From: Vulcanimicrobiota bacterium
GTDB lineage: Bacteria > Vulcanimicrobiota > Xenobia > Xenobiales > JADMJV01
NCBI GenBank assembly: GCA_050250895.1
Contig: JBFWNU010000001.1
Coordinates: forward strand, 2,820,891 to 2,884,890
DNA length: 64,000 nt
Direction: 5' to 3'
Part shown: positions 2,211 to 37,703 of the stretch, one piece after another
Numbering within the stretch: the first letter of the stretch is position 1
Layout of the letters: each line of letters starts with the position of its first letter
Translations under genes and position numbers: made by a program
The notes under the pieces: model-generated
What the model was told of the DNA's origin: nothing
Database searches by the model: none
Seen by the model: the letters and a program-made list of their open reading frames with translations, nothing else

Positions 2211-3319
2211 ATGAAGCTTGTGACCTTTGGCCATTCCCTCGATTCCCCGTGCCAACCTCAGGGCACCGACCTCGACTCTCCCCAAACGCTGGTGTTGGTC
2301 TTTGGCGCCCCGGAATTTCGCGCTCAGCCCGAGGCGTTGGTCACTCTACGCGCTCGGTTTCCCCAGTCGGTGCTGGTGGGCTGCTCGTCTTCCGGCGAGA
2401 TCCTGGGCGAGGAGATCCACGACAAGAGCCTGGCGGTGGCCGTGGCCCACTTCGAAAAGAGCACCCTTCGGTCTGCTTCGACCACGGTCGACGGCGATAG
2501 CCGCAAAGCTGCCCGCGAGCTGGCCGAGCAACTCAAAGGACCCGGCCTCAAGGGAGTGCTGGTGCTCTCGGACGGCCTCAACGTGTCGGGCTCGGAACTC
2601 TCTCGCGGCTTCAACGAGGTGTTGGACGGGGTGGTCGTGACCGGCGGACTGGCCGGCGACGGCGACCGTTTCGCCTCGACCTGGGTGCTGGAGGGAAGCC
2701 AGCCCTCGAGCGGCCGCATCGTCGCGGTGGGCTTCTACGGAACCGACATGCTGGTGGGCTATGGCTCGCGCGGAGGCTGGGACGAGTTTGGTCTCGAACG
2801 CCAGGTGACCCGGGCCAAAGGCAGCGTGCTTTACGAGCTTGACGGCAAGAAGGCGCTGGCTCTCTACAAAGAATACCTGGGCGAATTGGCCAGCGAGTTG
2901 CCCGCCTCGGGCCTGCTCTTTCCCCTCTCCTTGCGCCGCGATGTCCACGACCAGCAGCGCTTCGTGCGGACCATTCTGGCCGTCGACGAAAAGGCCCAGT
3001 CGATGACCTTCGCCGGAGAGATTCCCGAGGGGTATCTGGCCCAACTGATGCACGCCAACTTCGACCGCCTCATTGACGGAGCCGGCGAGGCGGCCAATCT
3101 GGCCCGCGGTGGCCAGTTGGCCATCGCCATCAGCTGCGTGGGACGGCGCCTGGTGCTCGGTCAGCGGGCCGAGGAAGAGGTCGAGACGGCCTTCGAATCG
3201 CTGCCCGAGGGCACCCAGCAGGTCGGCTTCTATTCCTACGGAGAGCTCTCGCCGCAGTCGGACGGAAAGTGCGCGCTGCACAATCAGACAATGACCATGA
3301 CGACTCTGGGAGAACGTTG

Positions 3320-3320
<1 letters not shown>
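2211..3320 (+). CDS. FIST N/C domain sensor protein (NosP-like)
   Basis: Motifs VGCSSSGEI, TGGLAGDG, ISCVGRR, GFYSYGE, LHNQTMT; TGATG overlap with the kinase gene. Confidence 0.9.
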
Positions 3321-5434
<2,114 letters not shown>

Positions 5435-5518
5435 CCGCCTGGCCTTTGGCTGGCTTGACCTGGCTCTTGGCGGGCTGGCGGGTCGAGGCGGGCGGGCGGC
5501 CTGGTGGGCGGCGGGCAC

Positions 5519-5539
5519 ACAACCACTCCGGGTCGTTGT
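5519..5539. repeat. Isolated copy of the 21-bp palindromic repeat ACAACCACTCCGGGTCGTTGT
   Basis: Identical to the second-type unit of the 6440-6896 array, with a similar GGCGGGCA left flank. Confidence 0.9.
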
Positions 5540-5574
5540 CTGGCTGAGGGGCTAGCCAGGGCGGGGATGCAGGA

Positions 5575-5599
5575 AGGTGGGGGGACGGGCCCCCCACCT
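5575..5599. terminator. GC-rich hairpin between convergent genes, possible terminator
   Basis: AGGTGGGGGG-acggg-CCCCCCACCT perfect 10-bp stem; no clear U-tract. Confidence 0.5.
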
Positions 5600-5619
5600 C
5601 CTCGCTCGCGGATACCGGT

Positions 5620-6240
5620 CTACCTGGTCGGCTTAGTGTCGAGTCCGAAGGGCTTGATGCCTCCGCCATCGCTGTCGCTGTCGGACGGATAGCGCAGGGT
5701 GGCGATGGGCCCGCCCGGCTTCACGCCGCCCGGTCCGCCGGGTTTGAGACCTCCGCCATCGCTGTCGCTATCGGACGGATAGCGCAGGGTGGCAATCCCG
5801 GTGCCGGGAGGCTGGCTGCCCGGGTTGCCAGGCTTGATTCCCCCCGGCCCGCCCGGCTTAATCCCCCCGCCGTCGCTGTCGCTGTCTGACGGATAGCGCA
5901 AAGTGGCGATGCCAGCGCCCGGAGGCTTTGGGCCACCGGGCTTGCCGGGCTTTGAGCCGCCATCGCTGTCACTGTCGGACGGGTAGCGCAAGGTGGCGAT
6001 ACCCGCTCCGCCAGGCTTGGAGCCAGACTGCCCTTCCAGGAAGTTATTGAAGAACGGGTTGGCGCTCTTGGCTTCGCCGGCCTTGCCGCCCAGTGAGTCC
6101 CACTTGGAGCCAAGCAGCTGATTGGCTGCTCGCGTCTGCAGTCCGTCCGGCTTTTTGGCGGTTGACTGAGCGGCCGGCGCCGCCTTCTTCGGCAGCTGGA
6201 TATTGTTATTGGTTTTGACTTTGTGGCTGGTGTTGATCAT
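5620..6240 (-). CDS. Multi-core graspetide (marinostatin/microviridin-like) RiPP precursor, 4 cores
   Basis: Leader motif NPFFNNFLEGQ (cf. microviridin PFFARFL); four IATLRYPSDSDSDGG cores (cf. marinostatin FATMRYPSDSDE) separated by Gly/Pro/Lys linkers; AAGGAG RBS. Confidence 0.85.
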   Translation of the reverse strand: MINTSHKVKTNNNIQLPKKAAPAAQSTAKKPDGLQTRAANQLLGSKWDSLGGKAGEAKSANPFFNNFLEGQSGSKPGGAGIATLRYPSDSDSDGGSKPGKPGGPKPPGAGIATLRYPSDSDSDGGGIKPGGPGGIKPGNPGSQPPGTGIATLRYPSDSDSDGGGLKPGGPGGVKPGGPIATLRYPSDSDSDGGGIKPFGLDTKPTR

Positions 6241-6439
6241 TGGTTCTCCTTCACACTTGCCTTCAGTCTAGGGTGGCTCGCTCTCGCTGGGTTTTGCCGA
6301 ATTGTTTCCGGTGTTGCCGTCTTGTAACAGCCTTGCGTCGGCTTGCGTCGCCGGGCAGTGACGAGGGAGTGTCGCTCCAAGCAGATTTAAAGGCTGGCTC
6401 GGCGGTGGGGCTGGCCTGGTGGGCTTGGCGGGCGGGCAG

Positions 6440-6896
6440 ACAACCACCCCGGGTCGTTGTAAACAACCACTCCGGGTCGTTGTCCGGGCTGGCTCGACGG
6501 GCGGCGGGCAGGCAACCACCCCGGGTCGTTGTAAACAACCACTCCGGGTCGTTGTCCGGGCTGGCTCGACGAGCGGCGGGCAGACAACCACCCCGGGTCG
6601 TTGTAAACAACCACTCCGGGTCGTTGTCCGGGCTGGCCTGGTGGGCTTGGCGGGCAGACAACCACCCCGGGTCGTTGTAAACAACCACTCCGGGTCGTTG
6701 TCCGGGCTGGCCTGGTGGGCTTGGCGGGCAGACAACCACCCCGGGTCGTTGTAAACAACCACTCCGGGTCGTTGTCCGGGCTGGCCCGACGGGCGGCGGG
6801 CAGACAACCACCCCGGGTCGTTGTCCGGACTGGCCCGACGAGCGGCGGGCAGACAACCACCCCGGGTCGTTGTAAACAACCGCCTCGGGTCGTTGT
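6440..6896. repeat. REP/BIME-like array: 13 copies of a 21-bp imperfect palindrome (6 doublets + 1 singlet), period about 72-74 bp
   Basis: Units ACAACCAC[C/T]CCGGGTCGTTGT at 6440, 6463, 6512, 6535, 6584, 6607, 6658, 6681, 6732, 6755, 6804, 6853 and 6876 (two are variant). Doublets are joined by AA; linkers fall into two recurring classes. Confidence 0.9.
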
Positions 6897-7015
6897 CCGG
6901 GCTGGCCCGGTGGGTGGGGTTGGTCAGGCCGCGTTAATATTCTTGGAACATCGCGGAAATGTCCGGGCAACAGACTGGCAACGGCTGGGCAAAGCCAGTG
7001 GTTCAGGATAAGAGC

Positions 7016-7786
7016 ATGTTCCAACCACTCTTTCCCCACATCCTCAGAAAGCGCCGGCTAGCCCACAAGCTTCGGCAGAATGAACTGGCCAGACTGTGCG
7101 GTATTCCAGCCAAGAAGATGACCATGTTCGAGCGGGGCCTGCGCGTGCCGTCAGCCGATGAACTGGCCAGGCTCGAATGGGAGCTGGGCTCGTTCTACGG
7201 CTGCTCGTTTCGCCCTCCGCGCTATCAAGAGACCCTGCGCAACCAGGCCAGCCGTCTTTGCCAAACGCCCGAACCGTTCTTTCCTCCCAAGGACCGGTCG
7301 AACGCCGTCCGCTACCGGGCCGCTCTCCATCGCTATCCCGAGCTGGTGGCGAAGTTGACGCAGCGTATCCGAGCCCGGCCGGATTTCGAACTGGTCAACT
7401 ACTTCAGCGAGGCGATTGCCAGCGGCTCGGCCGAGGAGTGCTTGTATCTGATGCATCTGCTCGCCCAGGGCGGGCAGCCTGGCTTGCTCGTGCCAACCAA
7501 TCTGGGCTGGCTTCCTCACCCGGTGGTCGACCCCGACACGAGAGAGTGGGTCAGCCACCGGCCCCTGCCGTTGGTGGTCGTCGGGCAATCGTATTACTTT
7601 CTCCAGGTGTCTTTCGCCACGCCGGTCCTCTACTCGGTCGACGTGCTGCGGTGGGACGGCCGCTGGACCGTCGTCGAGATTGATGGCGAGGGGCACCGGG
7701 GCAAGGGGGACGAAGAGAAAGAGGCAGCGGTGAAGCTGCCCTTTGAGCGGATCAAGACGGCCGAGCTGCTGCGGCTGGTTCAGTAG
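7016..7786 (+). CDS. XRE-type HTH protein with C-terminal DUF559/Vsr-like PD-(D/E)XK nuclease-like domain
   Basis: N-terminal HTH LRKRRLAHKLRQNELARLCGI...FERGLRVPS; C-terminal YSVDVL...VVEIDGEGH. Confidence 0.65.
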   Translation: MFQPLFPHILRKRRLAHKLRQNELARLCGIPAKKMTMFERGLRVPSADELARLEWELGSFYGCSFRPPRYQETLRNQASRLCQTPEPFFPPKDRSNAVRYRAALHRYPELVAKLTQRIRARPDFELVNYFSEAIASGSAEECLYLMHLLAQGGQPGLLVPTNLGWLPHPVVDPDTREWVSHRPLPLVVVGQSYYFLQVSFATPVLYSVDVLRWDGRWTVVEIDGEGHRGKGDEEKEAAVKLPFERIKTAELLRLVQ

Positions 7787-8258: not shown

Positions 8259-8879
8259 GTGAGCAAGTTCAAATATCCGAAGGTGCGACCTACATTCCAG
8301 GCTCCCGGGGCCACCGAGCCGGCCGTCGAGATGTTCGAGCGCTTCCTGGCCGAAGGAGGCCCTTTCCGCGATGGCGAGTCGATTCAGCTGAGCTGGATGT
8401 GGCTGCAAGTGGCTCAGCAGGGCGATGGCCTGGTCATCCTCGCGCCCAGGTTGGGGAGCATGCCGATGGAGTTTCATGACGATTGCTCGCGGGCGCTGGT
8501 GCTCAACCTGACGCAGCGTTACATTTGTGACAGCTTTGGGGTGAGCCCGAGCCCGTGCAATGCCCGTCAGGCCGCTCTGGTCGTCAAGGACCTGGACCGC
8601 TGCCAGAAGGTCTTCATGAATCGCCTCGGGCCCGAAGAGGCGAGCGACTCCGGCTGGTATTTCGACAGTCCCGAAAGCCAGCTAGATGCCAACGACCCGG
8701 ACAGCCTGGAATATCTCAGTTTGTGGGAGTTGGCCGGACGCTACCCCCTGGCGCTGGACTTCTTTTTGCTGCCCACCGATTGGCAGGTCGCCTTACAGGC
8801 CGCTCCGACCGTGTTGCAGAGCTTCAAGCCGGTTGCGGCCCGCCCGAACTCCTACTACGCTCTGCGTTACCCGGGCTGA
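8259..8879 (+). CDS. Imm33/DUF2185-like immunity protein
   Basis: GGAGG RBS with GTG start; GESIQLSWM, SDSGWYF and FFLLP motifs. Confidence 0.6.
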   Translation: MSKFKYPKVRPTFQAPGATEPAVEMFERFLAEGGPFRDGESIQLSWMWLQVAQQGDGLVILAPRLGSMPMEFHDDCSRALVLNLTQRYICDSFGVSPSPCNARQAALVVKDLDRCQKVFMNRLGPEEASDSGWYFDSPESQLDANDPDSLEYLSLWELAGRYPLALDFFLLPTDWQVALQAAPTVLQSFKPVAARPNSYYALRYPG

Positions 8880-11800
8880 ACACGCCGGCCCGGGCCAACA
8901 GTTCGCCGGCTTTGGCCTCATGCTCGGCGGCCTTGGAACCCTCCCCATAGTAGCGAGTCAGCGCCTGGTGGCAATGGGCTTGCTGGAGGGGATTGTCGAC
9001 GGCCTGCAGGGCGTCGAGAGCCTCGAGCAAGATCACCAGGGCCTGGTCGCGCTGGCCGATGCGCTCGAGTAGCTCGCCGCGACAACGCAGCACGATGGCC
9101 TGATAAATGGGATGGCTCGACACTTCTTTGCGGATGCGGTCCAGGCGGGCCAGGCCGGCCGGGTCCGCCAGTAGCGGCAGGCAGCACGCCTCGAGCAAGA
9201 GCGATTCGATCAGGAAGTAGTCGAAGTGGCGACGACGGCAATCGCGAGCCGCCTCCTGGCTGTGAGCCCGAGCGGCGGCGGGATTGTCGAGGGCTAGCTG
9301 ATGCCAGCCGCGGGCCAGGGTCACCACCACGCTCACCAGGGGCAGCTTGAGGCGCTCCTCCCACTCTTCGGCCTCGGCCAGAAAGCGCCGCGAGAACGCG
9401 AGGTCGCCCTGGCGGGCCGAAATGGCCGTCAGCTCCACGCTGGTCAGGGCCAGCGAGATCTTGTTGCCGGTGCGCAGAGCGTAGTTGCGTCCGGCCTCGG
9501 CGTGGCGGCGCGAGGCGGCCAGGTCGCCCAGGTCGCGATAGACCAACTGCACGATGGAGTGATGTAGCGACATGCCGTGGATGTCACCCACCCGGTCGGC
9601 CACTTCCAGGCTGTAGAGCAGCACTCGCAGGGCATTCGCCGTGTCACCCACCGTGGTCATCAGATAGCCGCACTCGCGCAACAGCGAGGCCTTTTCGAGG
9701 CTATCCGACTGGGTCTCGCGCACCACCGCCGCCAGCTTGCGCAGGCGGGCCCGGGCGGTGGGCAGCGAGATGCGCGACAGCAGCGTGAGGGAGTAAGCCT
9801 CCAGCAAGCCCGCCTCGTAGTAGGCCGGATTCTCGCTGGCCTGGCGTCCGGCGTAGAGCTTCTGGCGCAGGCTGATCTCGAGGGTGTCGAGCAGCCAGCC
9901 GCGCGGACCCAGAAAGAACAACACCCGGGCCAGCCGGTCCAGGCAACGCCGCACCTCTTCGTTGCCCCGGCTGAGCAGCAGCCGCAGGGGAGTCGACAGG
10001 GTGGCCACCAGGCCGTCCGAGGGCAGGCGGGTGCCGAAGGTGGACAGAGCCGAGCGATAGTGGGCTCGGGCCTGGCGCAGGTCGCCCATCCGCTCGCAGC
10101 AGACTCCCAGCTTGCGCTGCAGGCGGCCGCGACCGGCCCGGTCGGCCGAAGAGAGCAGCTCTTGGTAGATGGGCAGGGCCTCTTGCGAGTGGCCGCTGCC
10201 GTCGAGGGCGTCGGCCAGCTTCTCGGACAGGGCGGGCGAGGGAGCCAGCTGACTACAGGCCCGATAGGCCTCGGCCGCCTGGGCATAACCGAAGGTGGCC
10301 ATGGCCGCGTCACCGGCTTTGAGCAGCTGCTCGGCTGCCAGCTGGTTCTGACCACTGGCCTGATAGTGGTGAGCCAGGCGCAAAGCCGGACCCCCTAACC
10401 TGGCCAGTGCAGCCGCCGCCCGGGCGTGCAGGTCGGTCAGCTGCTGACCTTCGAGCAACACCTCGAGCACCGGCTGATTGGCGAAGCTATACACGCCATG
10501 CTCGCGCTCTTGGAGCACCTTGCGGGCGCACAACCGCTCCAGGCTCTCGAGCAACTGCTCGCCGGCCAACTCGCAGGCCGCCATCAGCAACTCGAAGCCG
10601 AACTCGCTGCCCAGCACCGCCGCCTGGCGAGCGATGGCCACATCGACCGCGTCCAGGTCGGCCAGGCGCCGCTCCACCGCCTCGCGCACCGAGCCCGGTA
10701 GCTTGCTGCCGCCGTCGGAAGGTCGGGCCATCACCTGGGTCTCGAGGCGCCAGGCTCCGTCCACCAGGCGCAGCTTCTCTTCGGCCACGAACGTCTTGAG
10801 AATCTCGCTCAAGAACAGCGGGTTGCCTCCGGTCTCGGCAAACAGCCGCCGGCCCGCCTCGGGAGCAAGCTCGGCAAAGCCCAGCATCGAGCGCACCATG
10901 GCCACCGACTGGCCCTCGTCGAGCGGCTCGAGGCGCACCACCGGTTGCCCGGCCAGCTCAGCCGGAGCCCGCTCGCAACTGGCCACCACCGCCACCTGGC
11001 TCTCGGCCCGGGCCAGATAGACCAGAAACTCGAGGCTGGCCGGATCGAGCAACTCGAGGTCGTCGACCACCAGCACCAGCCCCTCTTCACCGGCCAGCCG
11101 GCCCAGCAGGCGCACCATGCCTTCGAACAGGCGAAAGCGCAGGGCCGGATCGCCGGCCTGGGCGGGTTGTTCGGAGAGCTCGGGCAAGAGCAGCGACAAA
11201 GGCTTGCGAAAGGCCTCAAGACTCGGGTCCAGCCCCGACCCCACCGCCCGCCGCAGCCAGGGCAGCCAGGCTCCGAACACCTCCGAGCCGGGCTCGACCC
11301 ACAGCACGGGACGCCCCGGCCGGCGCAGATCGTCGGCCGCCTCTTGCAGAAAGCGGGTCTTGCCCACGCCGCTGGCCGCCTCGACCAGCACCATCCGCTG
11401 GCCGGCCAGTCGCCCCAGCTCGGCCTCGCGCCCCACCAGCCGCGGAGTCAGCAGCTGCTCGGGAGCCCGCGACACCTCGGCTCCGCCTCGCCCGAACAGG
11501 TCGTTCCACTCGGCCAGCAGCTCGCCGGCGCTCTGGAACCGGTCGGCCGGCTCCTTCTCGAGCAACTTCTCGATGAGCCGGGCCAGCCGCTCGGGCACCC
11601 AGTCGGCAAGCTCGCGCACGGGCCTGGGCGGGTCGTGCAAAATCGCGCACAACACGGCCACCAGCTCTTCCTGGTCAAAGGGCAGCTGGCCGGTGGTCAG
11701 TTCATACAGCATCACACCCAGGCTGTAGAGGTCGGCGCGAAAGTCCACCTCTTGCCCGCCCACCAGCTCGGGAGCCATATAGTGCACCGTGCCCACGATC

Positions 11801-12315
11801 ACCGAGGGGTCGGTCATCAAAGTGGTCGCCTCGGCCCGCCGGGCCAGGCCAAAATCCAGCAAGCGCGGCTGCCCGTCGGGTTGCACCAGCACGTTTTCGG
11901 GCTTGAGGTCGCGATGCAAGACTCCGTGGCGATGGATGTACAACACGCCCTCGAGCAAGCGAGCGAACAGCTCGCTCAGCCGCTCGAGCCACCCCTCGCC
12001 GGGCGGCCCCAGGTAGGCCCGCATCGAGCTGCCCTGGACCAGCTCGAGGGTGTAATACGGCTGCTCGTCGACCTCGCCCAGCTCGAAGACCGGCACCAGG
12101 CTGGGGTGGGAGAGCCCCGAGGCCACCCGAAACTCGCGCCGAAAGCGCAGACGGTCGTGGAGCGTGATGGCCACCGCCGGACGCAGCAGCTTCAGGGCCA
12201 CCTCGTCGTCGCCCCTGGCCACTCGATAGACGCGCCCCATTCCCCCCTGGCCGAGAAACTCGAGCACCCGGTGGCCGTCGATCTCTTTGGGATGCACCAT
12301 CCCCCCGGCTTCCAC
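8824..12315 (-). CDS. Ser/Thr protein kinase fused to AAA (STAND-like) ATPase and helical/TPR repeats
   Basis: LGQGGMGRVY, HRDLKPEN, DFGLA, YMAPE; P-loop SGVGKT, Walker B VVDDL, TGGNPLF. Alternative start ATG 12300. Confidence 0.9.
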   Translation of the reverse strand: MEAGGMVHPKEIDGHRVLEFLGQGGMGRVYRVARGDDEVALKLLRPAVAITLHDRLRFRREFRVASGLSHPSLVPVFELGEVDEQPYYTLELVQGSSMRAYLGPPGEGWLERLSELFARLLEGVLYIHRHGVLHRDLKPENVLVQPDGQPRLLDFGLARRAEATTLMTDPSVIVGTVHYMAPELVGGQEVDFRADLYSLGVMLYELTTGQLPFDQEELVAVLCAILHDPPRPVRELADWVPERLARLIEKLLEKEPADRFQSAGELLAEWNDLFGRGGAEVSRAPEQLLTPRLVGREAELGRLAGQRMVLVEAASGVGKTRFLQEAADDLRRPGRPVLWVEPGSEVFGAWLPWLRRAVGSGLDPSLEAFRKPLSLLLPELSEQPAQAGDPALRFRLFEGMVRLLGRLAGEEGLVLVVDDLELLDPASLEFLVYLARAESQVAVVASCERAPAELAGQPVVRLEPLDEGQSVAMVRSMLGFAELAPEAGRRLFAETGGNPLFLSEILKTFVAEEKLRLVDGAWRLETQVMARPSDGGSKLPGSVREAVERRLADLDAVDVAIARQAAVLGSEFGFELLMAACELAGEQLLESLERLCARKVLQEREHGVYSFANQPVLEVLLEGQQLTDLHARAAAALARLGGPALRLAHHYQASGQNQLAAEQLLKAGDAAMATFGYAQAAEAYRACSQLAPSPALSEKLADALDGSGHSQEALPIYQELLSSADRAGRGRLQRKLGVCCERMGDLRQARAHYRSALSTFGTRLPSDGLVATLSTPLRLLLSRGNEEVRRCLDRLARVLFFLGPRGWLLDTLEISLRQKLYAGRQASENPAYYEAGLLEAYSLTLLSRISLPTARARLRKLAAVVRETQSDSLEKASLLRECGYLMTTVGDTANALRVLLYSLEVADRVGDIHGMSLHHSIVQLVYRDLGDLAASRRHAEAGRNYALRTGNKISLALTSVELTAISARQGDLAFSRRFLAEAEEWEERLKLPLVSVVVTLARGWHQLALDNPAAARAHSQEAARDCRRRHFDYFLIESLLLEACCLPLLADPAGLARLDRIRKEVSSHPIYQAIVLRCRGELLERIGQRDQALVILLEALDALQAVDNPLQQAHCHQALTRYYGEGSKAAEHEAKAGELLARAGVFSPGNAERSRSSGGPQPA

Positions 12316-15059: not shown

Positions 15060-16823
15060 GTGCTTCCAAAGGAATGGGTCGAAGAACTCGTCTATGGCAA
15101 GAGAGCGAATCATCGTTTCACCCAGGACACGCCAATACTCCCGGATGTGTGGTTCGAGTACGCCCAGAATGGAGGACGGCGTACTTCTTTGCTCTTGACG
15201 CCTCACTATGAAACCTCGCCGGGCTTCCTGGCCGCCCAACTTGACGTGGGGAATCCGGCGCAGATGGTCGCCCACAACCAGACGGTGGTCGTGGCGGATT
15301 TGACCTATCTCGAGATGCTGCGGCAAGCCTTGCCTCTCTCTGTTTGGTGGAAGAACGAGGTCGGTCCACTCGTCGACGGCACGACGGTATCGGACAGGTT
15401 GCGCCAGTTGGCCCGCTTGGATCCGCCGCGTCTCGCGGAACTACTGGACGGGAGCGACAAGGTTCGAGAAGAACTCGGGCTACCACGAGGACTGGTCTTG
15501 ATGCTCCGAGTGGGTGGGATTCTGGCGCGGGCGCTGGAGAAGCCCCCATCATCAAGCTATGAATGGCTGGAACTGCGGCATAGTCCTGAGGTCGTGCATT
15601 GCCTAGCAGACTTGTATGCCGGTCTGAAGGTCGAGGCCCCGGGAACTCTCTGGCTGGTGCAACGCAACCGGCCCGCCCAAGCATGTAGCAGTGCCTCTTG
15701 TCAGACTATCAAAGCAGATGCGGCTCGCTCACTGTTCAGCATCAGTTGTAGCAAGATCAACTGGGCTATTGTCGATAGTGGGGTTGACGCCCGCCATCCT
15801 GCCTTTCGCAGGCGCGACGCCAAAGGCGAGTTGGCCCCATTGGGTGACGCCTGGCAAGGGCAGTCACGGGTGGTGAGGACCTACGATTTCACGAGGCTGC
15901 GAGCACTTGTTCAAGGTGCCGCCGGTGCGCTCGAAGGGGCAAGGCGACTGCACACCTTCACATCGCGCCTCATTGAGGGTGCAGATGTTGATTGGAAGGG
16001 TCTGTCGGCGGGCCTCGAAATCCCGCACGACCAGCATTATCTACCGCCGACGAGCCCCCACGGAACGCACGTGGCAGGCATACTGGGGGCGGACCTGCGG
16101 GACGAGGATGCCGTGGCCATCGGTGTTTGCCCGGATGTTGAGCTTTTCGACTTGCGTGTCCTGAACGGTGAGGGACAAGGAGATGAGTTCTCGGTGATGG
16201 CGGCTCTACAGTTCGTCAGATATCTCAATTCGAAGAGTGAGAGAATGGTCGTTCACGGTGTGAACTTGAGTCTGTCGTTGTTTCACAACGTCCGCAACTA
16301 CGCTTGCGGGAGGACCCCTATTTGCGAGGAGTGTGAGAGGCTCGTCGGGTCCGGAGTGGCCACCGTTGCTGCCGCCGGGAATCAGGGTTATCAGGGCTTT
16401 GAGACTAAGAACGGGCTTCTGGAGGGCTATCAGGATATCAGCATCACTGACCCCGGAAACGCCGACGGTGTCATCACAGTGGGTTCTACGCACTATGGTC
16501 GGCCTCATACCTACGGCGTGAGCTACTTCTCCAGCCGAGGCCCGACCGGTGATGGGCGGTGTAAACCGGATCTGGTTGCGCCTGGTGAGAAGATCCAGGC
16601 GCCCATTCCTGGGGGCGGCTTGGATTCGATGGACGGTACCAGCATGGCCGCGCCACACGTGAGCGGCGCCTGTGCGCTCCTCATGGCCAGGCACGGCGAG
16701 TTCGTGGGTCAGCCGCAGCGAATCAAGAAGGTCTTGTGTCAGTCAGCAACCGATCTAGGTCGGGACCGCTATTTTCAGGGCGCGGGCATGTTGGATGTCT
16801 TGCGCGCCCTCCAATGTGTCTGA
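15060..16823 (+). CDS. S8 subtilisin-like serine protease (no signal peptide)
   Basis: Catalytic triad IVDSGVD / HGTHVAG / GTSMAAP; AAAGN oxyanion motif. Confidence 0.93.
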   Translation: MLPKEWVEELVYGKRANHRFTQDTPILPDVWFEYAQNGGRRTSLLLTPHYETSPGFLAAQLDVGNPAQMVAHNQTVVVADLTYLEMLRQALPLSVWWKNEVGPLVDGTTVSDRLRQLARLDPPRLAELLDGSDKVREELGLPRGLVLMLRVGGILARALEKPPSSSYEWLELRHSPEVVHCLADLYAGLKVEAPGTLWLVQRNRPAQACSSASCQTIKADAARSLFSISCSKINWAIVDSGVDARHPAFRRRDAKGELAPLGDAWQGQSRVVRTYDFTRLRALVQGAAGALEGARRLHTFTSRLIEGADVDWKGLSAGLEIPHDQHYLPPTSPHGTHVAGILGADLRDEDAVAIGVCPDVELFDLRVLNGEGQGDEFSVMAALQFVRYLNSKSERMVVHGVNLSLSLFHNVRNYACGRTPICEECERLVGSGVATVAAAGNQGYQGFETKNGLLEGYQDISITDPGNADGVITVGSTHYGRPHTYGVSYFSSRGPTGDGRCKPDLVAPGEKIQAPIPGGGLDSMDGTSMAAPHVSGACALLMARHGEFVGQPQRIKKVLCQSATDLGRDRYFQGAGMLDVLRALQCV

Positions 16824-16836
16824 AAGGAGCAATCTC

Positions 16837-17967
16837 ATGTTTACTTTGGAAGCTCTCGAGGCCAAAGAAGGCGATTGTTTGATTTTGCATTACGGAGATG
16901 CCGCCAATCCCCGCCGAATTTTGATTGACGGAGGACCGAGAGGTGCCTATCGTCAGGTACTGCGCAAGCGTCTGGTGGAACTTCGCGGTGTTCACGGCCC
17001 CCTCCAGTTGGAGATGGTTATGGTGAGCCATATCGACGCGGATCATATTACGGGCATCCTCGATCTGTTCAATGAGCTCGCCGAACAACGAGAGCAGGGT
17101 GATGAGCCATTGGTAGACATCGTGACCCTCTGGTTTAACAGCTTTGACGACATCCTGGGAAGCGAGGGCGATGAACTGCTCGCGCGTTTTCAGGCCGCAG
17201 CAAATACCGCTGCTGCTGGTGAGGCTCTGTCCCCCGACTCGCCTGTCTCTCAAGCCGGCGCACTCATTTTGGCGGGGGTAGGCCAGGGGCGTCGGTTGAG
17301 AGGTCTGGCAGCTGCTCTGGGCACCCAGACCAACGCAGGCTTCGAGCAGTTGGTGATGGCCGCAGCAGCCCCGGCCGAGGTTCGGCCGCTGGATCTCGGC
17401 GACGGTTTGAAGTTCACCGTCCTCGGCCCTGCGGCTGCCCAATTGGCCGCTCTTCGTCGGGAATGGGATGCGGAGCTGGCGAAGATGAAGAAGGCCTCGC
17501 GCGAGGAGGCTGCTGCTATCGGCGCCGCGTTTCTTGACGAGAGCGCCGCCAATCTCTCCAGCACCGTGGTCCTGGCCGAGCGCGGGGGCAAGCGCATGCT
17601 GCTAACGGGTGATGCCCGTGGGGACTTTGTGCTCGATGGGCTCCGCAATGCGGGCTTGCTCGAGAACGGAGAGATTCACCTTGACTTGCTAAAAGTGCCT
17701 CATCATGGTAGCGACCGCAACGTGACGTTGGACTTCTTCGAGCGGATCACGGCGGACCACTATGTTATCTCGGCTAATGGCAAGTATGACAACCCGGACC
17801 ACTCCATGCTAGAGATGTTGCGAGAAGCTCGGAAGGGGCAGCACTACACGGTCTACTTCACCAATGAGGTGACTCAGGTGACACGGTTCATGGCCCACGG
17901 TGCTGAAGATGGTTTTGATACCGTGGTCCGTGACCGCGACGCCCTGAGCCTCTCCGTAGCCCTCTAA
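16837..17967 (+). CDS. ComEC/Rec2-like MBL-fold metallo-hydrolase
   Basis: EGDCLIL, LIDGG, SHIDADHITG, LTGDA, KVPHHGS; AAGGAG RBS. Confidence 0.88.
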   Translation: MFTLEALEAKEGDCLILHYGDAANPRRILIDGGPRGAYRQVLRKRLVELRGVHGPLQLEMVMVSHIDADHITGILDLFNELAEQREQGDEPLVDIVTLWFNSFDDILGSEGDELLARFQAAANTAAAGEALSPDSPVSQAGALILAGVGQGRRLRGLAAALGTQTNAGFEQLVMAAAAPAEVRPLDLGDGLKFTVLGPAAAQLAALRREWDAELAKMKKASREEAAAIGAAFLDESAANLSSTVVLAERGGKRMLLTGDARGDFVLDGLRNAGLLENGEIHLDLLKVPHHGSDRNVTLDFFERITADHYVISANGKYDNPDHSMLEMLREARKGQHYTVYFTNEVTQVTRFMAHGAEDGFDTVVRDRDALSLSVAL

Positions 17968-18072: not shown

Positions 18073-20460
18073 CTATCGGAACGAGCGCTGGCGGCTAGCG
18101 GTCCTGCGCTTGGCCTCATCGAGCCAAGCGTTTACGGAAGCGGGCCACAGCTTGATTTTCGTTTCTCCGTCATCACCGCCGGTGGGGTCCGGACAATAGG
18201 CTACCAGGCAGCCTTTGGCAAACCCGATGACGGGCTCGAAGCCATAGTAATGCCATTCCAATTGAGCCAGAGGACGGCCTTCTGAGGTCAGCAACTCCAT
18301 GTTCAGGTCGCAGCCACCAAAACTTTGGATGCCGGCGCTCCTCGTGACAGCAAGCACTCGACGACCATCCTCAGAGCATCTGAACGCTCCTTCAGCGAGC
18401 CCATCTCGCCCGTCGGTTTGCGTCTTGGCCACCGCAATTTGGAACAAGGGCCCAAACGGACGACCATCGCGAGCTACCACCTGCCAACTCCGCGCCACGG
18501 GCTCGACCCGGAAATTCGTCATCGGCTTGAGCCCTTTCTCCCAGGTGAGGTTCTCCAGCGGCGGCCCAGAAAGCGGTTGACACGAATCGAGATCCCAGAC
18601 TTCAGCCTGACCTTCCCTGGTCGAGAAAATCTGGAGGTAACGACCGTCGGCCGAGAAACGGGGTCGCCTTTTTGATTCCAATTCAACCCCGCCGACAAAG
18701 TCACGGACACCTACCTTGTAAGCAAAGCCATCGCGACTCCCGACAAATGCCATCGAGTCAGCGGCAACACCGTCCACCGCCAAAATCTCCACTCGCGAGA
18801 GCAACCATTCGTGGATCCGGGGTTCTCGGTAAGACGGGCCCTCGTACCAGACCAGATGGCCGTCGTCGCTGCCAAAGAGCGGGCCCGGGCTGCTGCATAT
18901 ATCGTAGCAACCCCAATTGCCCACAGGCCGCGATGTCTTTTCAATCCATCCGTCATCGCCCTTCCGGAAGCACCTTACGGTAGCCCCCCTCATGGGATAC
19001 AACCAGGAACTCCTTGCGAGCCATAGCTCGTCCCCGAGGGCCTCCAGAGCCTGAATGGGTGTCCCTGCGTAGCTAAACTCCTCCTGCTTGTGCCAGACCT
19101 TCCCGCCAACTTCCGCCATGAACACCTCCCCCATGTGATTGCCTGCCCACCACTGGTTGCCAACGCTGGCAATGGCGGTGACCGCCTCTCCACGGGAAAG
19201 CTCGGTCGAGACTGTGGGCTCGAGCCTCCCACCGCTCCAGTAGTGGACCTCTACGTGCCCATCGGCGAGTCCTACAGCGACCGTTTCTCCCTGAGCCGCG
19301 ATGGCCGTGACTGGTGAGTTGAGAGACAGCACTTCCTTCCAGGTCGTGCCGTCCTTCCCCACGAAGACCTTGCCATTGGCGGCCCCCATCAGCACAGTCC
19401 CATCCGCCCATGCGAAACGACACGACCGAAATTCGACCGCCTGTAGCGGTTTCTCTTCACGAAGTTCAAGTTCCAGGACCACCTTGGGGGTCGAGTGGCC
19501 GGCATTATCCCATCGCCACACCCTCCCGTCCTGACAGCCCATCAGGACAAAGTCTCCCTTGGGACTACACGAGACCGAACAGACCGGACTCTGAAGGTTG
19601 TATTTTTCTTCGACAGGAGCCGCCTGGAGGGCTTCGACAAGTGAGGCTTTTGTTGCTTGGTACTCGGCTGGAAACAGACGTTCCATCCCCGGACGTTGAA
19701 ATTCTTCGGTGAGGGTAACGGCCAGCTTTAGCCCCTGACTGGGATCCACCTTCAATGATTGACTTATCGCCAACAACTGCCCTCGAAGTCGCGAAACATA
19801 GGAGCCGTGAGCGAAGAACAGCGCGACCCCTAGAAGCGAAGTAAAGATTGTCAATAGGGCGGTCCCCGCAACCCACCGGGTGCGCTTGTGCTCTCGAACG
19901 TCTTCGCTGACCAGTTCCTTGAGTTCCATTCCACGGATTGGAGCAGAGAGGCGGGCCGCCGCCTGCAAGAACTCTGGGTTTCTAAGACTCAACGTACCGG
20001 GGCTAGACCTCGCCCAGCCGAGATCCACCCACAAAGGCTCCTCCTGGTAAGCCTTCCGCAGAGCCGCTGGTAATGCGTCGGTCAATCCCCAATCGAAGTC
20101 TTGGTCGCCCCACGCGAAGGTGCCGTCCGAGCGGACGAGCAGCAAATTTTCAACCCTGCCCATATCTTGAACCCAATACTTGACCTCTTCGCCGACCCAC
20201 TTCGAGGCAGCCGAGGTCGGGCAACCCAAAAGAATCAGGTATCGGCTGGACTCAAGGGCTGCCTGAATCGACTTCCACGCGCCCGGTGTTGCGGCCAAAT
20301 CCGTCTCGTCACGAAAGATCCGAACACTACGCAGCCGATACCAGGGTTTTGCAAGACCCTCGAGGGCTTTCTGCAGGTGGATGGCCAATAAGCGATCGGC
20401 GGCGTGGCTGTAAGAAATAAACGCGTCGAAACGTTCTATGGAAGAGCTCGATTTACTCAT
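18073..20460 (-). CDS. TIR domain - transmembrane helix - WD40-like beta-propeller protein
   Basis: FDAFISYSH, IFRDETDL, SKWVGEEV; hydrophobic WVAGTALLTIFTSLLGVALFF; degenerate WD repeats (GCQDGRVWRWD, GLADGHVEV). Confidence 0.85.
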   Translation of the reverse strand: MSKSSSSIERFDAFISYSHAADRLLAIHLQKALEGLAKPWYRLRSVRIFRDETDLAATPGAWKSIQAALESSRYLILLGCPTSAASKWVGEEVKYWVQDMGRVENLLLVRSDGTFAWGDQDFDWGLTDALPAALRKAYQEEPLWVDLGWARSSPGTLSLRNPEFLQAAARLSAPIRGMELKELVSEDVREHKRTRWVAGTALLTIFTSLLGVALFFAHGSYVSRLRGQLLAISQSLKVDPSQGLKLAVTLTEEFQRPGMERLFPAEYQATKASLVEALQAAPVEEKYNLQSPVCSVSCSPKGDFVLMGCQDGRVWRWDNAGHSTPKVVLELELREEKPLQAVEFRSCRFAWADGTVLMGAANGKVFVGKDGTTWKEVLSLNSPVTAIAAQGETVAVGLADGHVEVHYWSGGRLEPTVSTELSRGEAVTAIASVGNQWWAGNHMGEVFMAEVGGKVWHKQEEFSYAGTPIQALEALGDELWLARSSWLYPMRGATVRCFRKGDDGWIEKTSRPVGNWGCYDICSSPGPLFGSDDGHLVWYEGPSYREPRIHEWLLSRVEILAVDGVAADSMAFVGSRDGFAYKVGVRDFVGGVELESKRRPRFSADGRYLQIFSTREGQAEVWDLDSCQPLSGPPLENLTWEKGLKPMTNFRVEPVARSWQVVARDGRPFGPLFQIAVAKTQTDGRDGLAEGAFRCSEDGRRVLAVTRSAGIQSFGGCDLNMELLTSEGRPLAQLEWHYYGFEPVIGFAKGCLVAYCPDPTGGDDGETKIKLWPASVNAWLDEAKRRTASRQRSFR

Positions 20461-20470
20461 TGCAAAAGGC

Positions 20471-22570
20471 CTACTTTCTGGCCAAGTCAAAGGGCGGGCT
20501 AGTAATCACATCGAAGCCGACCCCCGCCTGCAGGGCCAGGTTGTGGCTGGGCTTGTTCACCAGCAGGGCTCGGAGACCAGTGAAGCGGACTCTTCCATCC
20601 GGAAGCAGCGAAACGTCGACAGAGTTGACCCGATCCCTGAGCGGTTGGGTTAAGTGAACCATGCCGAGGCTAACCGAGGGCTCCAGGTCGAAAACGTCCT
20701 CATCGCCAACGACCACGACCTGGTTGTTGGCCGCCTCACCGCGCTCAACAATGGCAAGGCTGAACTTGCCTTCACCGTGAACCAACCCCAGTCGTGGCTC
20801 TTTCAACGCTAGAGGTTGGTAGTGATAGACCAGGATGTGGCGCAGGTCCCTTCCGTCCGTCCCATCGTTGTTCTTATCCAACCTTATTCGCTCCTGGTCC
20901 TCTGGCCGAACCTGGAGGAGGACGATTCCTGATGGGTCCACTCGAGCGTCCAACTCCAGTAGTTCAAACTCGTGCTTGTGTTCCAGCTCAAACAACCATT
21001 TGAAGAGCCTGAGGCCGGTCGATACCAATCCCAGTGCGCCGATGCCAGCGGGGCCAAGCAGTCCGGCCACCAATCCTGGTAAAGCCGACCGGGCGCCTTC
21101 CGCTATGAACTGCGGGAGCCTCCCTCTCTTGAGTTCGGCGTGGAGTCTTATCAACTCGCCAGTGAGTTCCAGCGGAGTCTTGCCGTCAAAGTTTGCGCCC
21201 AATTGCTGCAGGGCCAACTGACCCAAACCTCGCCCCAAATCGAGCGGCGCCACCCCAGCCGTCGCGGCCGTCACACCGCTGACCACCTCGAGGAGTCGGC
21301 GAAGGGTTTGGCGGTTGTGGAACTCACTGACGGTGCCCTCACCCGCCCTGAGCAACTTGCCGGCACTCTTGTCTTCCAAAGGGATGAGGAAGAGAGAAAA
21401 CGCAACCCCACCGAAAGTTGGCTTTCTGAGAGTCGGCCCATCATTGTGCACTACTCGCAGGAAAAAATTGCTATTCTCGAAGAAGTCCTGTTTCTTCTTG
21501 CCGGGGTCGAACATGGTCACTACGAATGTCCAGTCGCGGCCCTGATCCGAATCGAAGACCGAAGGCAGACCGAGGGCCTCGAGACCCTGACCTGATAAAT
21601 CAACTGAGAACTCATAGTTCGCGGACAAGAGTCGCGGCATCAAAGGCAGCGGGTTTGCTCTGCCCCCGTGATGCAAGTTTAGCCTCAGCGGATAAACCGT
21701 CGGAACGGGCCCGACGGGCCTGGTTTCGTCCCCTCCATCGTCGAACAGTTGGCGGCCGAGACTCGTGAGTTCCACGATTTCCGCTAGAGGAAGGAGCGGA
21801 TCGATGGAACCTTGCCGGACGCCACGAACGAACCCGCTGTCTTTGAGAGCATTTACGGCCGACATGACATCGTGAGAACGGTCGGCTACGGTCATTGCGC
21901 CCAGAGCCAGGTCTTGGACTAGCCGGAGACGTTCACGCGCCTCCGCCTGGGCATCCGCTAGAACGATGTTGAGCAAATCTAGTCCACGTCTCGTCAAGTT
22001 CTGGACCTCAGCCTCCATTTCGGAGGTGAGGTTGACAAATCCGGCACGAGCAAGCCGCAAAAGACTGTTCTTGACGTCGATTTCCAGCTTACCCGTTCGG
22101 CCCAAGAGCAGGTCTGCCAGAACTACAAGGTCCCGGAGTTGCAAGTCTTGCGTAACGGAGGTAAATGCCTCTGGCAACAGGCTGGACGGGATGCTCGAAA
22201 GGGCCGCGACGAGCAGTTGTTGGAGCTCATCGATGGCGAAGAGTTGGAGCTCGTCCAAGTCTGGCAGTTCCACTACGGGGTCGTCTAGGGCAACAGGAAG
22301 CAGCGTGGCCAGACCCTCGCGGCGCCGGGACAACGCAAGTTCCCAAAGAGGCTTGAACCAGTCTCCTTGTACGTCCGTCAGGCCATCGCTCAAAAGCGGG
22401 ACGAGTATGGCGCAGCCTCGGACCAAGTCCACCGCATCCAACAGAGGCGGTGAAACCACGCTCACTACCGCAAAAGGAATCAGCGCTTTGAATTGCTCTT
22501 CGAGTGAAAGGACAACGTCTATGGCAGCATCGCTAGCCAGTATGCCAACCTTTAACAAATGAACCCCCAT
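20471..22570 (-). CDS. Hypothetical protein; C-terminal ~400 aa paralogous to 34142-35458
   Basis: 699-aa ORF ending 10 bp before the TIR-propeller gene; shared motifs such as MFDP, PLED, GEGTV and DLRHIL.YHY. Confidence 0.8.
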   Translation of the reverse strand: MGVHLLKVGILASDAAIDVVLSLEEQFKALIPFAVVSVVSPPLLDAVDLVRGCAILVPLLSDGLTDVQGDWFKPLWELALSRRREGLATLLPVALDDPVVELPDLDELQLFAIDELQQLLVAALSSIPSSLLPEAFTSVTQDLQLRDLVVLADLLLGRTGKLEIDVKNSLLRLARAGFVNLTSEMEAEVQNLTRRGLDLLNIVLADAQAEARERLRLVQDLALGAMTVADRSHDVMSAVNALKDSGFVRGVRQGSIDPLLPLAEIVELTSLGRQLFDDGGDETRPVGPVPTVYPLRLNLHHGGRANPLPLMPRLLSANYEFSVDLSGQGLEALGLPSVFDSDQGRDWTFVVTMFDPGKKKQDFFENSNFFLRVVHNDGPTLRKPTFGGVAFSLFLIPLEDKSAGKLLRAGEGTVSEFHNRQTLRRLLEVVSGVTAATAGVAPLDLGRGLGQLALQQLGANFDGKTPLELTGELIRLHAELKRGRLPQFIAEGARSALPGLVAGLLGPAGIGALGLVSTGLRLFKWLFELEHKHEFELLELDARVDPSGIVLLQVRPEDQERIRLDKNNDGTDGRDLRHILVYHYQPLALKEPRLGLVHGEGKFSLAIVERGEAANNQVVVVGDEDVFDLEPSVSLGMVHLTQPLRDRVNSVDVSLLPDGRVRFTGLRALLVNKPSHNLALQAGVGFDVITSPPFDLARK

Positions 22571-22767
22571 AGAGCTGTTTGATAGGTCGAAGGTCCCACC
22601 CTAAGGCAGGAGTGGCCTCTTCTACTCGAGCCTTTCACTCGATGGTTGGCCCGTCCTTCTGCCCGACCGCGGAGCCGACCTTATGCGGAGGTCGGCAGAA
22701 TGGCGTGAAGGATGAGGTCTCGTCGGCCGGATTCGCAGGGGTCGTGCCCTGATCTTGCAAGGCTTGT

Positions 22768-22806
22768 CTCTCAGGAGCGCTCTCTCTCAGGAGCGCTCTC
22801 TCTCAG
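22768..22806. repeat. Short 16-bp tandem duplication (CTCTCAGGAGCGCTCT x2 plus partial) in divergent intergenic region
   Basis: Seen directly in the sequence. Confidence 0.7.
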
Positions 22807-22908
22807 TCGGGGACGCAGGCTCAGGCGGCTTTGGGTCGAATCGCTTTGCGATTCGAACCCAGCGAGGGCAATTCGCCATCAAATGAAGCAGGACGGAGTT
22901 TGCAGTTC

Positions 22909-24423
22909 ATGGGTCGTGAGCGCGAAGAATATATTACCTTCTTAAGCTACGCTTGGAATGATGACCGGGACTGGACGACCCATTTCGGCAATCTACTTGA
23001 AAGTATCCTTCAACAGTTCTCTGGTCAAAAGATGATGAAGATCTTTCGTGACCTAAAGTTGCGTTCGGATAAGATTCTATCGGAGGGGATACGGGAGGCT
23101 CTTGATTGTTCATCAAGCCTTACGTGCGTGATGTCCCCATCTTATCTCAAGTCCCAGTGGTGTCAAAATGAATTAAGCTATTTTCAGGAGTATCATCCGA
23201 CCCGCCCAATATTCCTCGTGACAGCAATTCCTGTGGAGGGCATCGATGGCCGTCTTCACCATCCTTTTTGGAACTATGTCCAGGAGCGAGGCCGATACAA
23301 GAGAATCAAGCCGACGGACGACGAGTTTCACGAGATTGTGGAGTACTTGGGGCAGGATATCCTAGAAGCCCTCGGTTTGTTCGAACCCCCCGGCGGCGCG
23401 CCGAAGTCCCACACCGCCGTGTCCCTCCTGGCGGAAGAGGATCGGACCAGATTGGCCTCTGGGCCACTGCCTACTGCATCGGAGAAGGGGATGCACCTTG
23501 AGGTCGCCGGACCCCATGACCTTCAACAGGTTGTTCTCTACAACTTCAACAGGAAAGCCCAAGCCTATTTTCGGTCGTTGCTTGCGCCCGCGCCAATGCA
23601 GTCACAGAACGCGCTGGAACTTCTTCGTATGATAGAGAAGTATTGCGAGGATGAAGTATTGGCCTACGGGTCTAGGTGGCTTGACGTAGGCTGTGGAACG
23701 GGTCTCGTGCTAGCGTTGATGCGAGACTGCCAAACAGCCCCTCCTCTCAACGATATCGTCACCCTCGGGTTAGACTATTCTTCTGAAATGATCAGGCTGT
23801 CAAAAGAGGTCGCTGCATACAATGATGTAGTCCAACTTGACGTCGTGGAGATGGACGCCGAGAAGTTGGGTCAACCGTTCGATTGCGTGGTGGCGAACAA
23901 CGTATTCCATTGGCTCTTGGATCTGGAAAAGATTCGGCGGGCCATGAAGAACTGTGCCTCGTGCCTGAGGCACGGCGGGATCTTGGCGGCCAGTATCGCG
24001 GGCCGTGGAACGGGGAAAGCCTTCTTCCAGGTATACCGGGAGACGATGGCCGAACTTCTTGACGGGGCAACGATGGCGAACTGGAAGTCACACATCGACA
24101 ATCCCATCGGGCTTCAAGCTTTGAGTGAAATCGTGGATCTCGCCCTTCCCAACGACTTCACTGTTGTTGAAGCTCGTCTAAGATATGAGCCTGTAGTCTA
24201 CAAAAACCCTGAAATGTATGTTGAGGCAGCTCGGGCCTACGGGGAATTTGTCTTCACTGCGCCATTTCTGGGACTGAACGGGGACGCCCTGGTTGATCAG
24301 TTCTGGCGTCGTCTCAAAGAGAAGTTTCGGCAACTCTGGGAGCAGTCACCTGCCGCAGAGCGGTTAGGTGGTAGATACCTACACGATCAGTACATGATCT
24401 ACGTTCTATATCGAAAGAGATGA
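22909..24423 (+). CDS. TIR domain - class I SAM methyltransferase fusion
   Basis: TIR: FLSYAWND, IFRD, SPSYLKSQWCQNEL. MTase: WLDVGCGTG, GLDYSSEMI, FDCVVANNVFHW, LRHGG. Confidence 0.85.
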   Translation: MGREREEYITFLSYAWNDDRDWTTHFGNLLESILQQFSGQKMMKIFRDLKLRSDKILSEGIREALDCSSSLTCVMSPSYLKSQWCQNELSYFQEYHPTRPIFLVTAIPVEGIDGRLHHPFWNYVQERGRYKRIKPTDDEFHEIVEYLGQDILEALGLFEPPGGAPKSHTAVSLLAEEDRTRLASGPLPTASEKGMHLEVAGPHDLQQVVLYNFNRKAQAYFRSLLAPAPMQSQNALELLRMIEKYCEDEVLAYGSRWLDVGCGTGLVLALMRDCQTAPPLNDIVTLGLDYSSEMIRLSKEVAAYNDVVQLDVVEMDAEKLGQPFDCVVANNVFHWLLDLEKIRRAMKNCASCLRHGGILAASIAGRGTGKAFFQVYRETMAELLDGATMANWKSHIDNPIGLQALSEIVDLALPNDFTVVEARLRYEPVVYKNPEMYVEAARAYGEFVFTAPFLGLNGDALVDQFWRRLKEKFRQLWEQSPAAERLGGRYLHDQYMIYVLYRKR

Positions 24424-24519
24424 CGAAGGTTGGCTGAACGCGGGAGCCGAGACAGACGCCACGAGGTCTACATAACCGTCTCGCGATGACATTCAAGCTC
24501 TAAGAGAGAACCAAGCTTC

Positions 24520-25746: not shown

Positions 25747-25873
25747 ATTACGCTTCTTCTCTCTGGACGTCGCCAACAGGCCCGGTGACGATAGCTTGTC
25801 TGCAGACCGATTGCACTCACTGAAGGATCCCGATGTAATGCAACGAAGCGGGTCGTCACTATGAGGGGGTCGA

Positions 25874-26455: not shown

Positions 26456-26466
26456 CGGAGGACTAT

Positions 26467-34034: not shown

Positions 34035-34141
34035 GACCGACACCTCCCCGAATTGGTCGCTATTGGTTCCTGGAGAAGGCGCAGACTCCTCCGAAGTGGA
34101 CCACTGCCGAATGAACTGAGATTGTAGGCCCGCTGACCGCG

Positions 34142-37084: not shown

Positions 37085-37112
37085 TCAGCTCTCAGAAAGG
37101 ATTCGATTTCCC

Positions 37113-37418: not shown

Positions 37419-37495
37419 GGCACCGAGAGTCACCGCGACGCGGTGGCTCTCGGCCTTTTCTGTCGTTTCTAGTTTGCTTAGGATTGGAGTCTCCC

Positions 37496-37684: not shown

Positions 37685-37703
37685 ACACAGGGAGGTTGTA
37701 GCC

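Follow-up and report, generated by a model that had tools for sequence, protein, structure and literature searches.

A predicted four-core, marinostatin-type precursor gene without an adjoining ring-forming ligase gene in a Vulcanimicrobiota bacterium

In the tricyclic microviridin systems (MdnA, MdnB, MdnC), a leader helix motif accompanies a TxxYPSD core that bears the two lactone rings of the family, together with a lactam for which a Lys, a Glu and a second ligase (MdnB/MvdC) are needed. The PFFARFL helix is the motif recognized by the ligase, specificity is set by the residue after Thr, with Leu favouring elastase and subtilisin, and a missing second ligase has been connected with products like marinostatin (PMC7823629). 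Marinostatin carries the same lactone rings as microviridin but no lactam, and its activity is lost without the two N-terminal residues (PMC13039773); Met is its P1 residue (PMC9623506). A precursor sequence from Algicola sagamiensis reportedly matures to the bicyclic marinostatin E, which inhibits chymotrypsin and subtilisin and neither trypsin nor elastase (PMC10125368). Multi-core (class II) precursors are already published: they carry double-glycine cleavage motifs (PMC13039773), one ester-forming ligase serves all of their cores (PMC5934393; PMC7823629; PMC13039773), and AMdnC cyclizes three cores on one AMdnA precursor in a distributive manner (PMC5934393). The subject of this report is a gene for a four-core precursor at 5620..6240 on the minus strand of a 64,000-nucleotide (nt) stretch of a Vulcanimicrobiota bacterium genome (assembly GCA_050250895.1, contig JBFWNU010000001.1, positions 2,820,891 to 2,884,890), the whole of which is called the window below. 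Its unusual feature is its stand-alone context, with no gene for a ring-forming enzyme adjoining it.

An open reading frame (ORF) of 206 amino acids (aa) with an ATG start coincides exactly with this interval in the ORF list, and the public protein set holds an identical protein, P0001. The initial annotation described a leader with PFFNNFL and four identical cores, encoded with synonymous differences and separated by Gly/Pro/Lys linkers. The ORF, its translation and a comparison of codons bear this description out, so that the four-core precursor is confirmed as a real feature with the following parts.

5620..6240, minus strand: gene for the 206-aa precursor peptide, with its TAG stop at 5620-5622 (ORF list, PF12559, NF033738, P0001)
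6246..6251, minus strand: Shine-Dalgarno site AAGGAG, 5 nt ahead of the ATG (sequence reading)
6088..6120, minus strand: upstream leader element QLLGSKWDSLG, residues 41-51, in which Trp47 lies 14 residues N-terminal of the PFF motif (by-eye leader comparison)
6028..6057, minus strand: leader recognition motif PFFNNFLEGQ, residues 62-71 (alignment and review)
5956..6000, minus strand: core 1, IATLRYPSDSDSDGG, residues 81-95
5911..5955, minus strand: linker 1, SKPGKPGGPKPPGAG, 15 aa
5866..5910, minus strand: core 2, IATLRYPSDSDSDGG, residues 111-125
5797..5865, minus strand: linker 2, GIKPGGPGGIKPGNPGSQPPGTG, 23 aa
5752..5796, minus strand: core 3, IATLRYPSDSDSDGG, residues 149-163
5707..5751, minus strand: linker 3, GLKPGGPGGVKPGGP, 15 aa
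5662..5706, minus strand: core 4, IATLRYPSDSDSDGG, residues 179-193
5623..5661, minus strand: C-terminal tail GIKPFGLDTKPTR, 13 residues, the opening of which resembles a linker

The N-terminal 61 residues are hydrophilic and lead into the recognition motif, whose PFFNNFL part spans residues 62-68; the peptide is expected to be disordered. The translation contains IATLRYPSDSDSD four times, and the identity of the copies stretches to the 15-mer given for each core. Every copy holds TLRYPSDSD with Thr3, Ser8, Asp9 and Asp11 in place, Ile-Ala ahead of the Thr, Arg at the lactam-Lys position and no Glu, and GG follows each. The Gly/Pro/Lys-rich linkers vary in their residues as well as in their lengths.

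Two curated models recognize the protein. Its score is 38.2 bits with Pfam PF12559 (Inhibitor_I10), where the cut-off is 21, and 57.7 bits with NCBIfam NF033738 (cut-off 26), a model named 'microviridin/marinostatin family tricyclic proteinase inhibitor' that matches residues 62-91, that is, the leader motif and the first core. With both models above their cut-offs the match lies far beyond chance, and by sequence the protein is a member of the microviridin/marinostatin precursor family. The initial annotation had proposed just this identity, to be checked with a profile search, and it holds; its further guess that a pipeline would call the protein a low-complexity hypothetical does not, since an annotation pipeline that uses NCBIfam would name it from NF033738. 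The PFFxxFL motif of the family leader is present, with P62, F63, F64, F67, L68, E69 and Q71 invariant in alignment A1, and T-x-[KR]-Y-P-S-D with acidic acceptors is present in all four cores.

Within the family, one PFF motif followed by four cores fits the class II pattern of one leader and two to five tandem cores (in the sense of Ahmed et al. 2017, as given by PMC7823629 and PMC13039773), and GG comes after every core. AMdnA of Anabaena sp. PCC 7120 (three cores) likewise combines one leader with tandem cores and double-glycine motifs between them. Cyanobacterial class II systems are described as having microviridin-like cores and often transporters with a C39-peptidase domain, whereas the cores here are identical and Arg-type and no cluster genes lie near. 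The Lys of TxK and the Glu acceptor on which a tricyclic microviridin depends are both missing from four of four cores, so the gene is not one for a tricyclic microviridin.

Among the closest known systems are marinostatin and marinostatin E (Alteromonas, Algicola sagamiensis; MEROPS and Pfam family I10), with which the gene shares T-x-R-Y-P-S-D-S-D and Arg in place of the lactam Lys. The Algicola precursor found in this work (locus L013) contains ...FATMRYPSDSDEDGFN... and reads ...FATMRYPSDSDEDGFNFPV; it has a PFF-type leader, and 9 of 12 residues of its FATMRYPSDSDE recur in the window's core. These agreements uphold the marinostatin-type assignment of the initial annotation, and the Leu of the Leu-Arg reactive bond proposed there occupies the position that papers give as P1. 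The Algicola locus has a single MvdD-like ligase, and its marinostatin-type product is described as a bicyclic, lactam-free inhibitor of subtilisin and chymotrypsin. However, the Algicola precursor is about 63 aa long with a short leader and one core, whereas the window's protein has 206 aa, a 61-residue extension ahead of PFF and four cores, and it differs further from marinostatin in having Leu rather than Met at P1, a Ser/Asp rather than Glu/Asp tail and no adjoining ligase. The lactam-free Arg-type core of marinostatin is thus present and its short one-core precursor absent; with its four cores, its long leader and another residue at P1, the gene is not one for marinostatin itself. It pairs the published class II architecture with marinostatin-type cores.

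The cores appear to be under selection. Among the four copies of the 45-nt core DNA, 9 columns vary through at least 10 substitutions, all of them synonymous; random single-base changes in the core codons are synonymous in 24-30% of cases, which puts the chance of synonymous-only divergence at about 6e-7 to 5e-6. As the linkers meanwhile differ in length and residues, this pattern argues for purifying selection on the core peptide. G+C content at third codon positions (GC3) is 0.77 in the gene and 0.79-0.86 in six genes within about 7 kb, so the gene looks native and gives no sign of recent import.

Relatives in protein collections share the architecture. A HMMER search of 1.84 billion representatives returned 39 proteins at E<=1e-3, the window's own included, of which 10 reach E<=1e-10. 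By a scripted motif count, at least two TxxYPSD-type cores are present in 39 of 39 and at least four in 30, with a maximum of 14; because a multi-core query is biased toward multi-core matches, the fractions among these representatives are not valid for the whole family. Arg occupies the Lys position in at least one core of 19 representatives, and 15 have no Lys there at all. Among the full-length representatives only the window's protein has cores that are all identical. A PFF-type leader motif is recognizable in 34 of the 39 and lies beyond residue 40 in 21 of those 34, so that the N-terminal extension, called atypical in the initial annotation, is not: judged from these sequences, multi-core architecture with a long N-terminal extension is common among relatives. 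Ten of 23 long leaders, the window's own included, have a Trp at a distance of 13-16 residues from PFF on its N-terminal side, within a pattern resembling LLxxxWxx[LFI]xG (right-aligned, by eye), and this shared element suggests that at least part of the extension is a feature of the clade. K/R-Pro occurs in 36 of 55 linkers of 15 hand-picked proteins, namely the window's own and 14 top relatives. A word-indexed protein search yielded only four homologues of similar length, one of them the window's own protein; among 43 shorter, paralogue-like candidates of the precursor none reaches E<=0.01, and the plasmid collection has no match to the protein or to 5300-7100. Some multi-core relatives (P0007, P0019, P0020, P0028, P0030, and also P0015, P0017 and P0024) include large, domain-like N-terminal regions; one group of these has a common motif around DPNK...ERSGG.AG.TQVAGP, and others, of 479-948 aa, carry their cores mid-protein and have repeated PEI/PEV stretches.

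At the loci of relatives a ligase gene is the rule. One scan of genome contigs gave 15 loci, the window's own genome not being among them. The top loci, at roughly 40-44% identity (tblastn), come from metagenome-assembled genomes (MAGs) assigned to Eremiobacteraeota (L001), Candidatus Xenobia (L002), 'bacterium' (L003) and UBP9 (L004, L006); the remainder are a Nostocaceae MAG (L005), eight Chryseobacterium/Weeksellaceae loci and Algicola sagamiensis. A profile built from four ligases (L001, L002, L003 and L013) and run on six-frame translations detects an ATP-grasp ligase at 14 loci out of 15, in every case on the precursor strand and starting within about 1 kb after the precursor match (22 profile-matching pieces). 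The exception is L004, whose contig stops inside the precursor, 5 bases past the match; L006, from the same MAG, starts with the end of a precursor, and a ligase follows. Loci whose cores lack Lys (L001, L002, L003, L006 and L013) have a single ligase, while two ligases are found at the Nostocaceae locus and at seven of the eight Chryseobacterium/Weeksellaceae loci, the precursors of which include Lys-type cores; the eighth, L007, has one ligase on a contig of 3,754 bases. The ligases of L001, L002, L003 and L013 match TIGR04184, the model for the ester-forming MvdD, best, at 350-382 bits, under its strict equivalog cut-off of 475, and those of L001-L003 are above the cut-off of PF21068.

The Eremiobacterota/Xenobia/UBP9 precursors (L001-L004, L006; P0002, P0005, P0008) are the best matches to the window's protein and are uncharacterized. 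They share its long Trp leader, PFFxxFLE[GD]Q and Pro/Gly linkers with K/R-Pro, and have 4-7 cores of the [RA]YPSDSD type that differ within each protein, whereas the window's are identical. Where the contig spans precursor and ligase alike (L001-L003), the MvdD-like ligase comes next downstream; the window's gene is alone. The chryseoviridin-type precursors of Chryseobacterium (L008-L012, L014, L015) share the Pfam family, a PFF leader (PFFASFLEKQ) and a C-terminal [RK]YPSDSD core. According to PMC10125368 they are lactam-free, protease-inhibiting multicore graspetides; they differ from the window's system in that several short precursor genes stand in a row beside two ligase genes and in having extra, non-microviridin ester rings upstream of a single microviridin-like core. 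A search of the literature found no description of the window's clade and nothing on microviridin in Eremiobacterota, although primary genome-mining surveys (Ahmed 2017, Lee 2020, Ramesh 2021) may list it; none of the papers found deals in any obvious way with graspetide precursors that stand alone.

Further genes accompany some of these loci. At L001 (10707-11369) and L002 (10707-11375) an Ala/Gly-rich ORF of 220 aa without a Pfam or NCBIfam match lies between precursor and ligase, and an S-adenosylmethionine-dependent carboxyl methyltransferase gene (PF03492) is placed just upstream of the precursor; at L003 a radical-SAM gene follows the ligase. These extra genes may be further tailoring or export genes of the clade.

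The reading that we favour, with a probability of about 0.65, is that the gene encodes a functional class-II-type precursor whose maturation in trans yields serine-protease inhibitors that are bicyclic, free of a lactam and have Leu at P1. The leader would be bound by an MvdD-type ligase from another part of the genome, which would form two side-chain esters per core. By analogy with marinostatin these would link Thr3 to Asp9 and Ser8 to Asp11, which we take to be the corresponding positions in the marinostatin structure; since the core has Arg where the lactam Lys would be and lacks Glu, a lactam is impossible. Cleavage by proteases in the Gly/Pro/Lys linkers, which come after a ...DGG motif in every case, would next free as many as four bicyclic peptides, and an uncleaved product would be a tetravalent chain. 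Release of single peptides is plausible given the GG after each core and the double-glycine cleavage motifs of class II, though no peptidase lies nearby. In either form the product might inhibit serine proteases in the manner of a substrate, through Leu4-Arg5 as reactive bond, its likeliest targets being subtilisin-, chymotrypsin- or elastase-type enzymes.

The genomic context weighs against this reading. Among 48 window ORFs, the non-overlapping likely genes chosen from 83 of at least 150 aa, a Pfam scan finds no member of an ATP-grasp family at E<=0.01 and no C39 peptidase and no C39 or ABC transporter, and NCBIfam finds no ligase among 11 window ORFs. A tblastn comparison of three related ligases with the window gives a best E of 0.21, and the four-ligase profile, run without HMMER filters on 1203 six-frame pieces of the window, a best E of 0.32 (5.7 bits); the span without a ligase thus reaches 5.6 kb on one side of the gene and 57.8 kb on the other, within the window. 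The methyltransferase and the 220-aa ORF of L001 and the radical-SAM protein of L003 have no counterpart in the window either (tblastn), and the gene is outside any operon. Weaker is the observation that no ligase among the best 120 of 448 matches (E<=1e-30) falls on a contig with the length of 3,947,236 bases given for that of the precursor; by contrast, precursor P0003 and ligase P0048 both lie on contigs of 89,610 bases. The initial annotation had made its interpretation depend on a ligase existing in the genome, and the part of the genome covered here, the 64-kb window, holds none; as a whole, that interpretation is partly supported.

These absences, when 14 of 15 related loci have their ligase no more than about 1 kb away, would also be expected of the main rival, a stranded relic: a precursor that was parted from its ligase or outlived it, with an open frame but unmatured and yielding no active inhibitor. 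The missing L001 and L003 neighbours and, weakly, the contig result lean the same way, as do the repeat elements, described below, that flank the gene and are found nowhere else in the window. Yet the ORF, the Shine-Dalgarno site and the leader motif are intact, GC3 is like that of nearby genes, and the substitutions in the cores (at least 10) are all synonymous while the linkers drift. Such a pattern points to selection, although it could predate a recent loss of the ligase; on balance a relic is unlikely. About as unlikely is a beads-on-a-string product, in which the cores are cyclized and the chain is left uncut as a tetravalent inhibitor or else a polyprotein, tethered or secreted. The lack of a peptidase or C39 transporter near the gene in the 48-ORF scan suits this idea, as do very long relatives (up to 14 cores; 841 and 948 aa), in which release of each core is less obvious, and Pro-rich linkers whose K/R-Pro pairs (36 of 55) would withstand many proteases. 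However, linkers that are free in length and sequence beside invariant cores are what discarded linkers would look like, GG after each core recalls the cleavage motifs of class II (PMC13039773), and the known family members work as small peptides.

Two further accounts are less probable than these. A precursor under purifying selection with no maturase within at least 5.6 kb downstream or 58 kb upstream might belong to a dispersed system, with one distant ligase and scattered precursors, or might act without ester rings; rather than a secreted product, the peptide could be a regulator or immunity factor for a defence protease of the cell itself. This last suggestion stems from the position of the gene, which borders a defence island with genes for an S8 subtilase and a CHAT-domain protease; to the account as a whole we give a small chance. 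That the ORF arose by chance, or encodes a Gly/Pro repeat protein of low complexity in DNA rich in G+C, is rejected as highly improbable: the region does have 65% G+C, many overlapping spurious ORFs and linkers of low complexity, but two curated models score over their cut-offs, homologues have the same leader and core architecture, divergence between the cores is synonymous only and a Shine-Dalgarno site is present.

If the precursor is matured as favoured here, a single gene would supply a small, ester-caged inhibitor in four copies, each with Leu as the specificity residue, which would lend itself readily to heterologous production and to the engineering of protease inhibitors. Its clade, with long Trp leaders, many Arg- or Ala-type cores and Pro-rich linkers, sits mostly in uncultured lineages and could reveal the way in which a single ligase deals with many cores, as well as the function of the second leader element. 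A stand-alone precursor also implies that genome mining anchored on ligases misses precursors encoded elsewhere. The current understanding of graspetides is not overturned.

The surroundings of the gene hold three neighbouring genes, a hairpin and a family of repeat elements resembling repetitive extragenic palindromes (REPs).

2211-3320, strand opposite to the precursor: FIST protein gene, downstream, convergent
3269-5434, strand opposite to the precursor: hybrid histidine kinase gene, downstream, convergent
5519..5539, plus strand: lone 21-nt REP-like hairpin, downstream of the gene (pattern search)
5572..5601, no strand assigned: G+C-rich hairpin of about 12 pairs, 20-50 nt past the stop, without a U tract (fold)
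6440..6896, plus strand: 13-copy array of the same REP-like hairpin with a 72-nt period, between the precursor gene and the divergent helix-turn-helix gene
6959-7786, divergent from the precursor: helix-turn-helix gene, upstream beyond the repeat array

About 200 nt of unique sequence lie directly upstream of the precursor gene, and the repeat array (region 6431-6909) follows. The REP-like element is a 21-nt imperfect palindrome, ACAACCAC[C/T]CCGGGTCGTTGT, without a match in Rfam; its 14 matches in the window share one orientation and all lie at the precursor locus, where shuffles predict 0. Long ORFs over the array (for example 6263-7039) are repeat artefacts. A reading of the 72-nt array as clustered regularly interspaced short palindromic repeats was ruled out because the units between the hairpins are 95% identical to each other. 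The hairpin at 5572..5601 is possibly a terminator shared by the two convergent genes; the whole 126-nt stretch that contains it folds at a z-score of only -1.5. The 5' region of the gene folds no better than shuffles, consensus promoter and terminator scans of 5300-7100 each gave 0 hits, and in no part of the window does an Rfam family attain its gathering score. A 10-nt direct repeat, CTTGCGTCGG, is present in 1.9 copies at 6332-6350, about 95-110 nt upstream of the start codon, and could be a candidate binding site for a regulator; the regulators nearest to it are the divergent helix-turn-helix protein and the convergent FIST and hybrid-kinase genes.

By its gene content, most of the window has the look of a defence island. 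The interval 45681-63999 is taken up by a defence cluster for 7-deazaguanine DNA modification (Dpd), with genes for QueC, a radical-SAM (QueE-like) protein, PTPS (QueD-like), FolE2 and an HNH protein, together with DpdC (48379-49320), two DpdB-like proteins (48980-50413 and 51673-52818), DpdA (50395-51660) and a DpdE-like SNF2 helicase that continues past the window end. At 15060-17967 the gene of an S8 subtilase (141 bits with PADLOC 'subtilase') stands before one for an MBL-fold protein with matches to LmuA and Avs1a models, and the two together resemble a defence module. Subtilisins are inhibited by marinostatin-type peptides, yet nothing ties this pair, 9 kb away, to the precursor. Five TIR-domain proteins are encoded within 18073-28712, 42662-43432 and 58181-59695, fused to WD40-like repeats, a methyltransferase, an unknown domain or an FGE-sulfatase domain, or resembling stand-alone ThsB; a SLOG-cluster2 protein and a 1824-aa CHAT-domain protein (28758-34232) are also present. 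At 8259-12315 an Imm33-like protein adjoins a protein of 1163 aa in which a Ser/Thr kinase is joined to an AAA_16 STAND ATPase and TPR repeats, and whose kinase part matches PADLOC PD-T4-6 models at up to 247 bits. A run of cell-wall hydrolases at 35702-40876, perhaps phage-derived, effector or housekeeping in role, comprises a protein with CHAP, GH108 and peptidoglycan-binding domains, then one with GH19 and M15 peptidase domains, then an NlpC/P60 protein.

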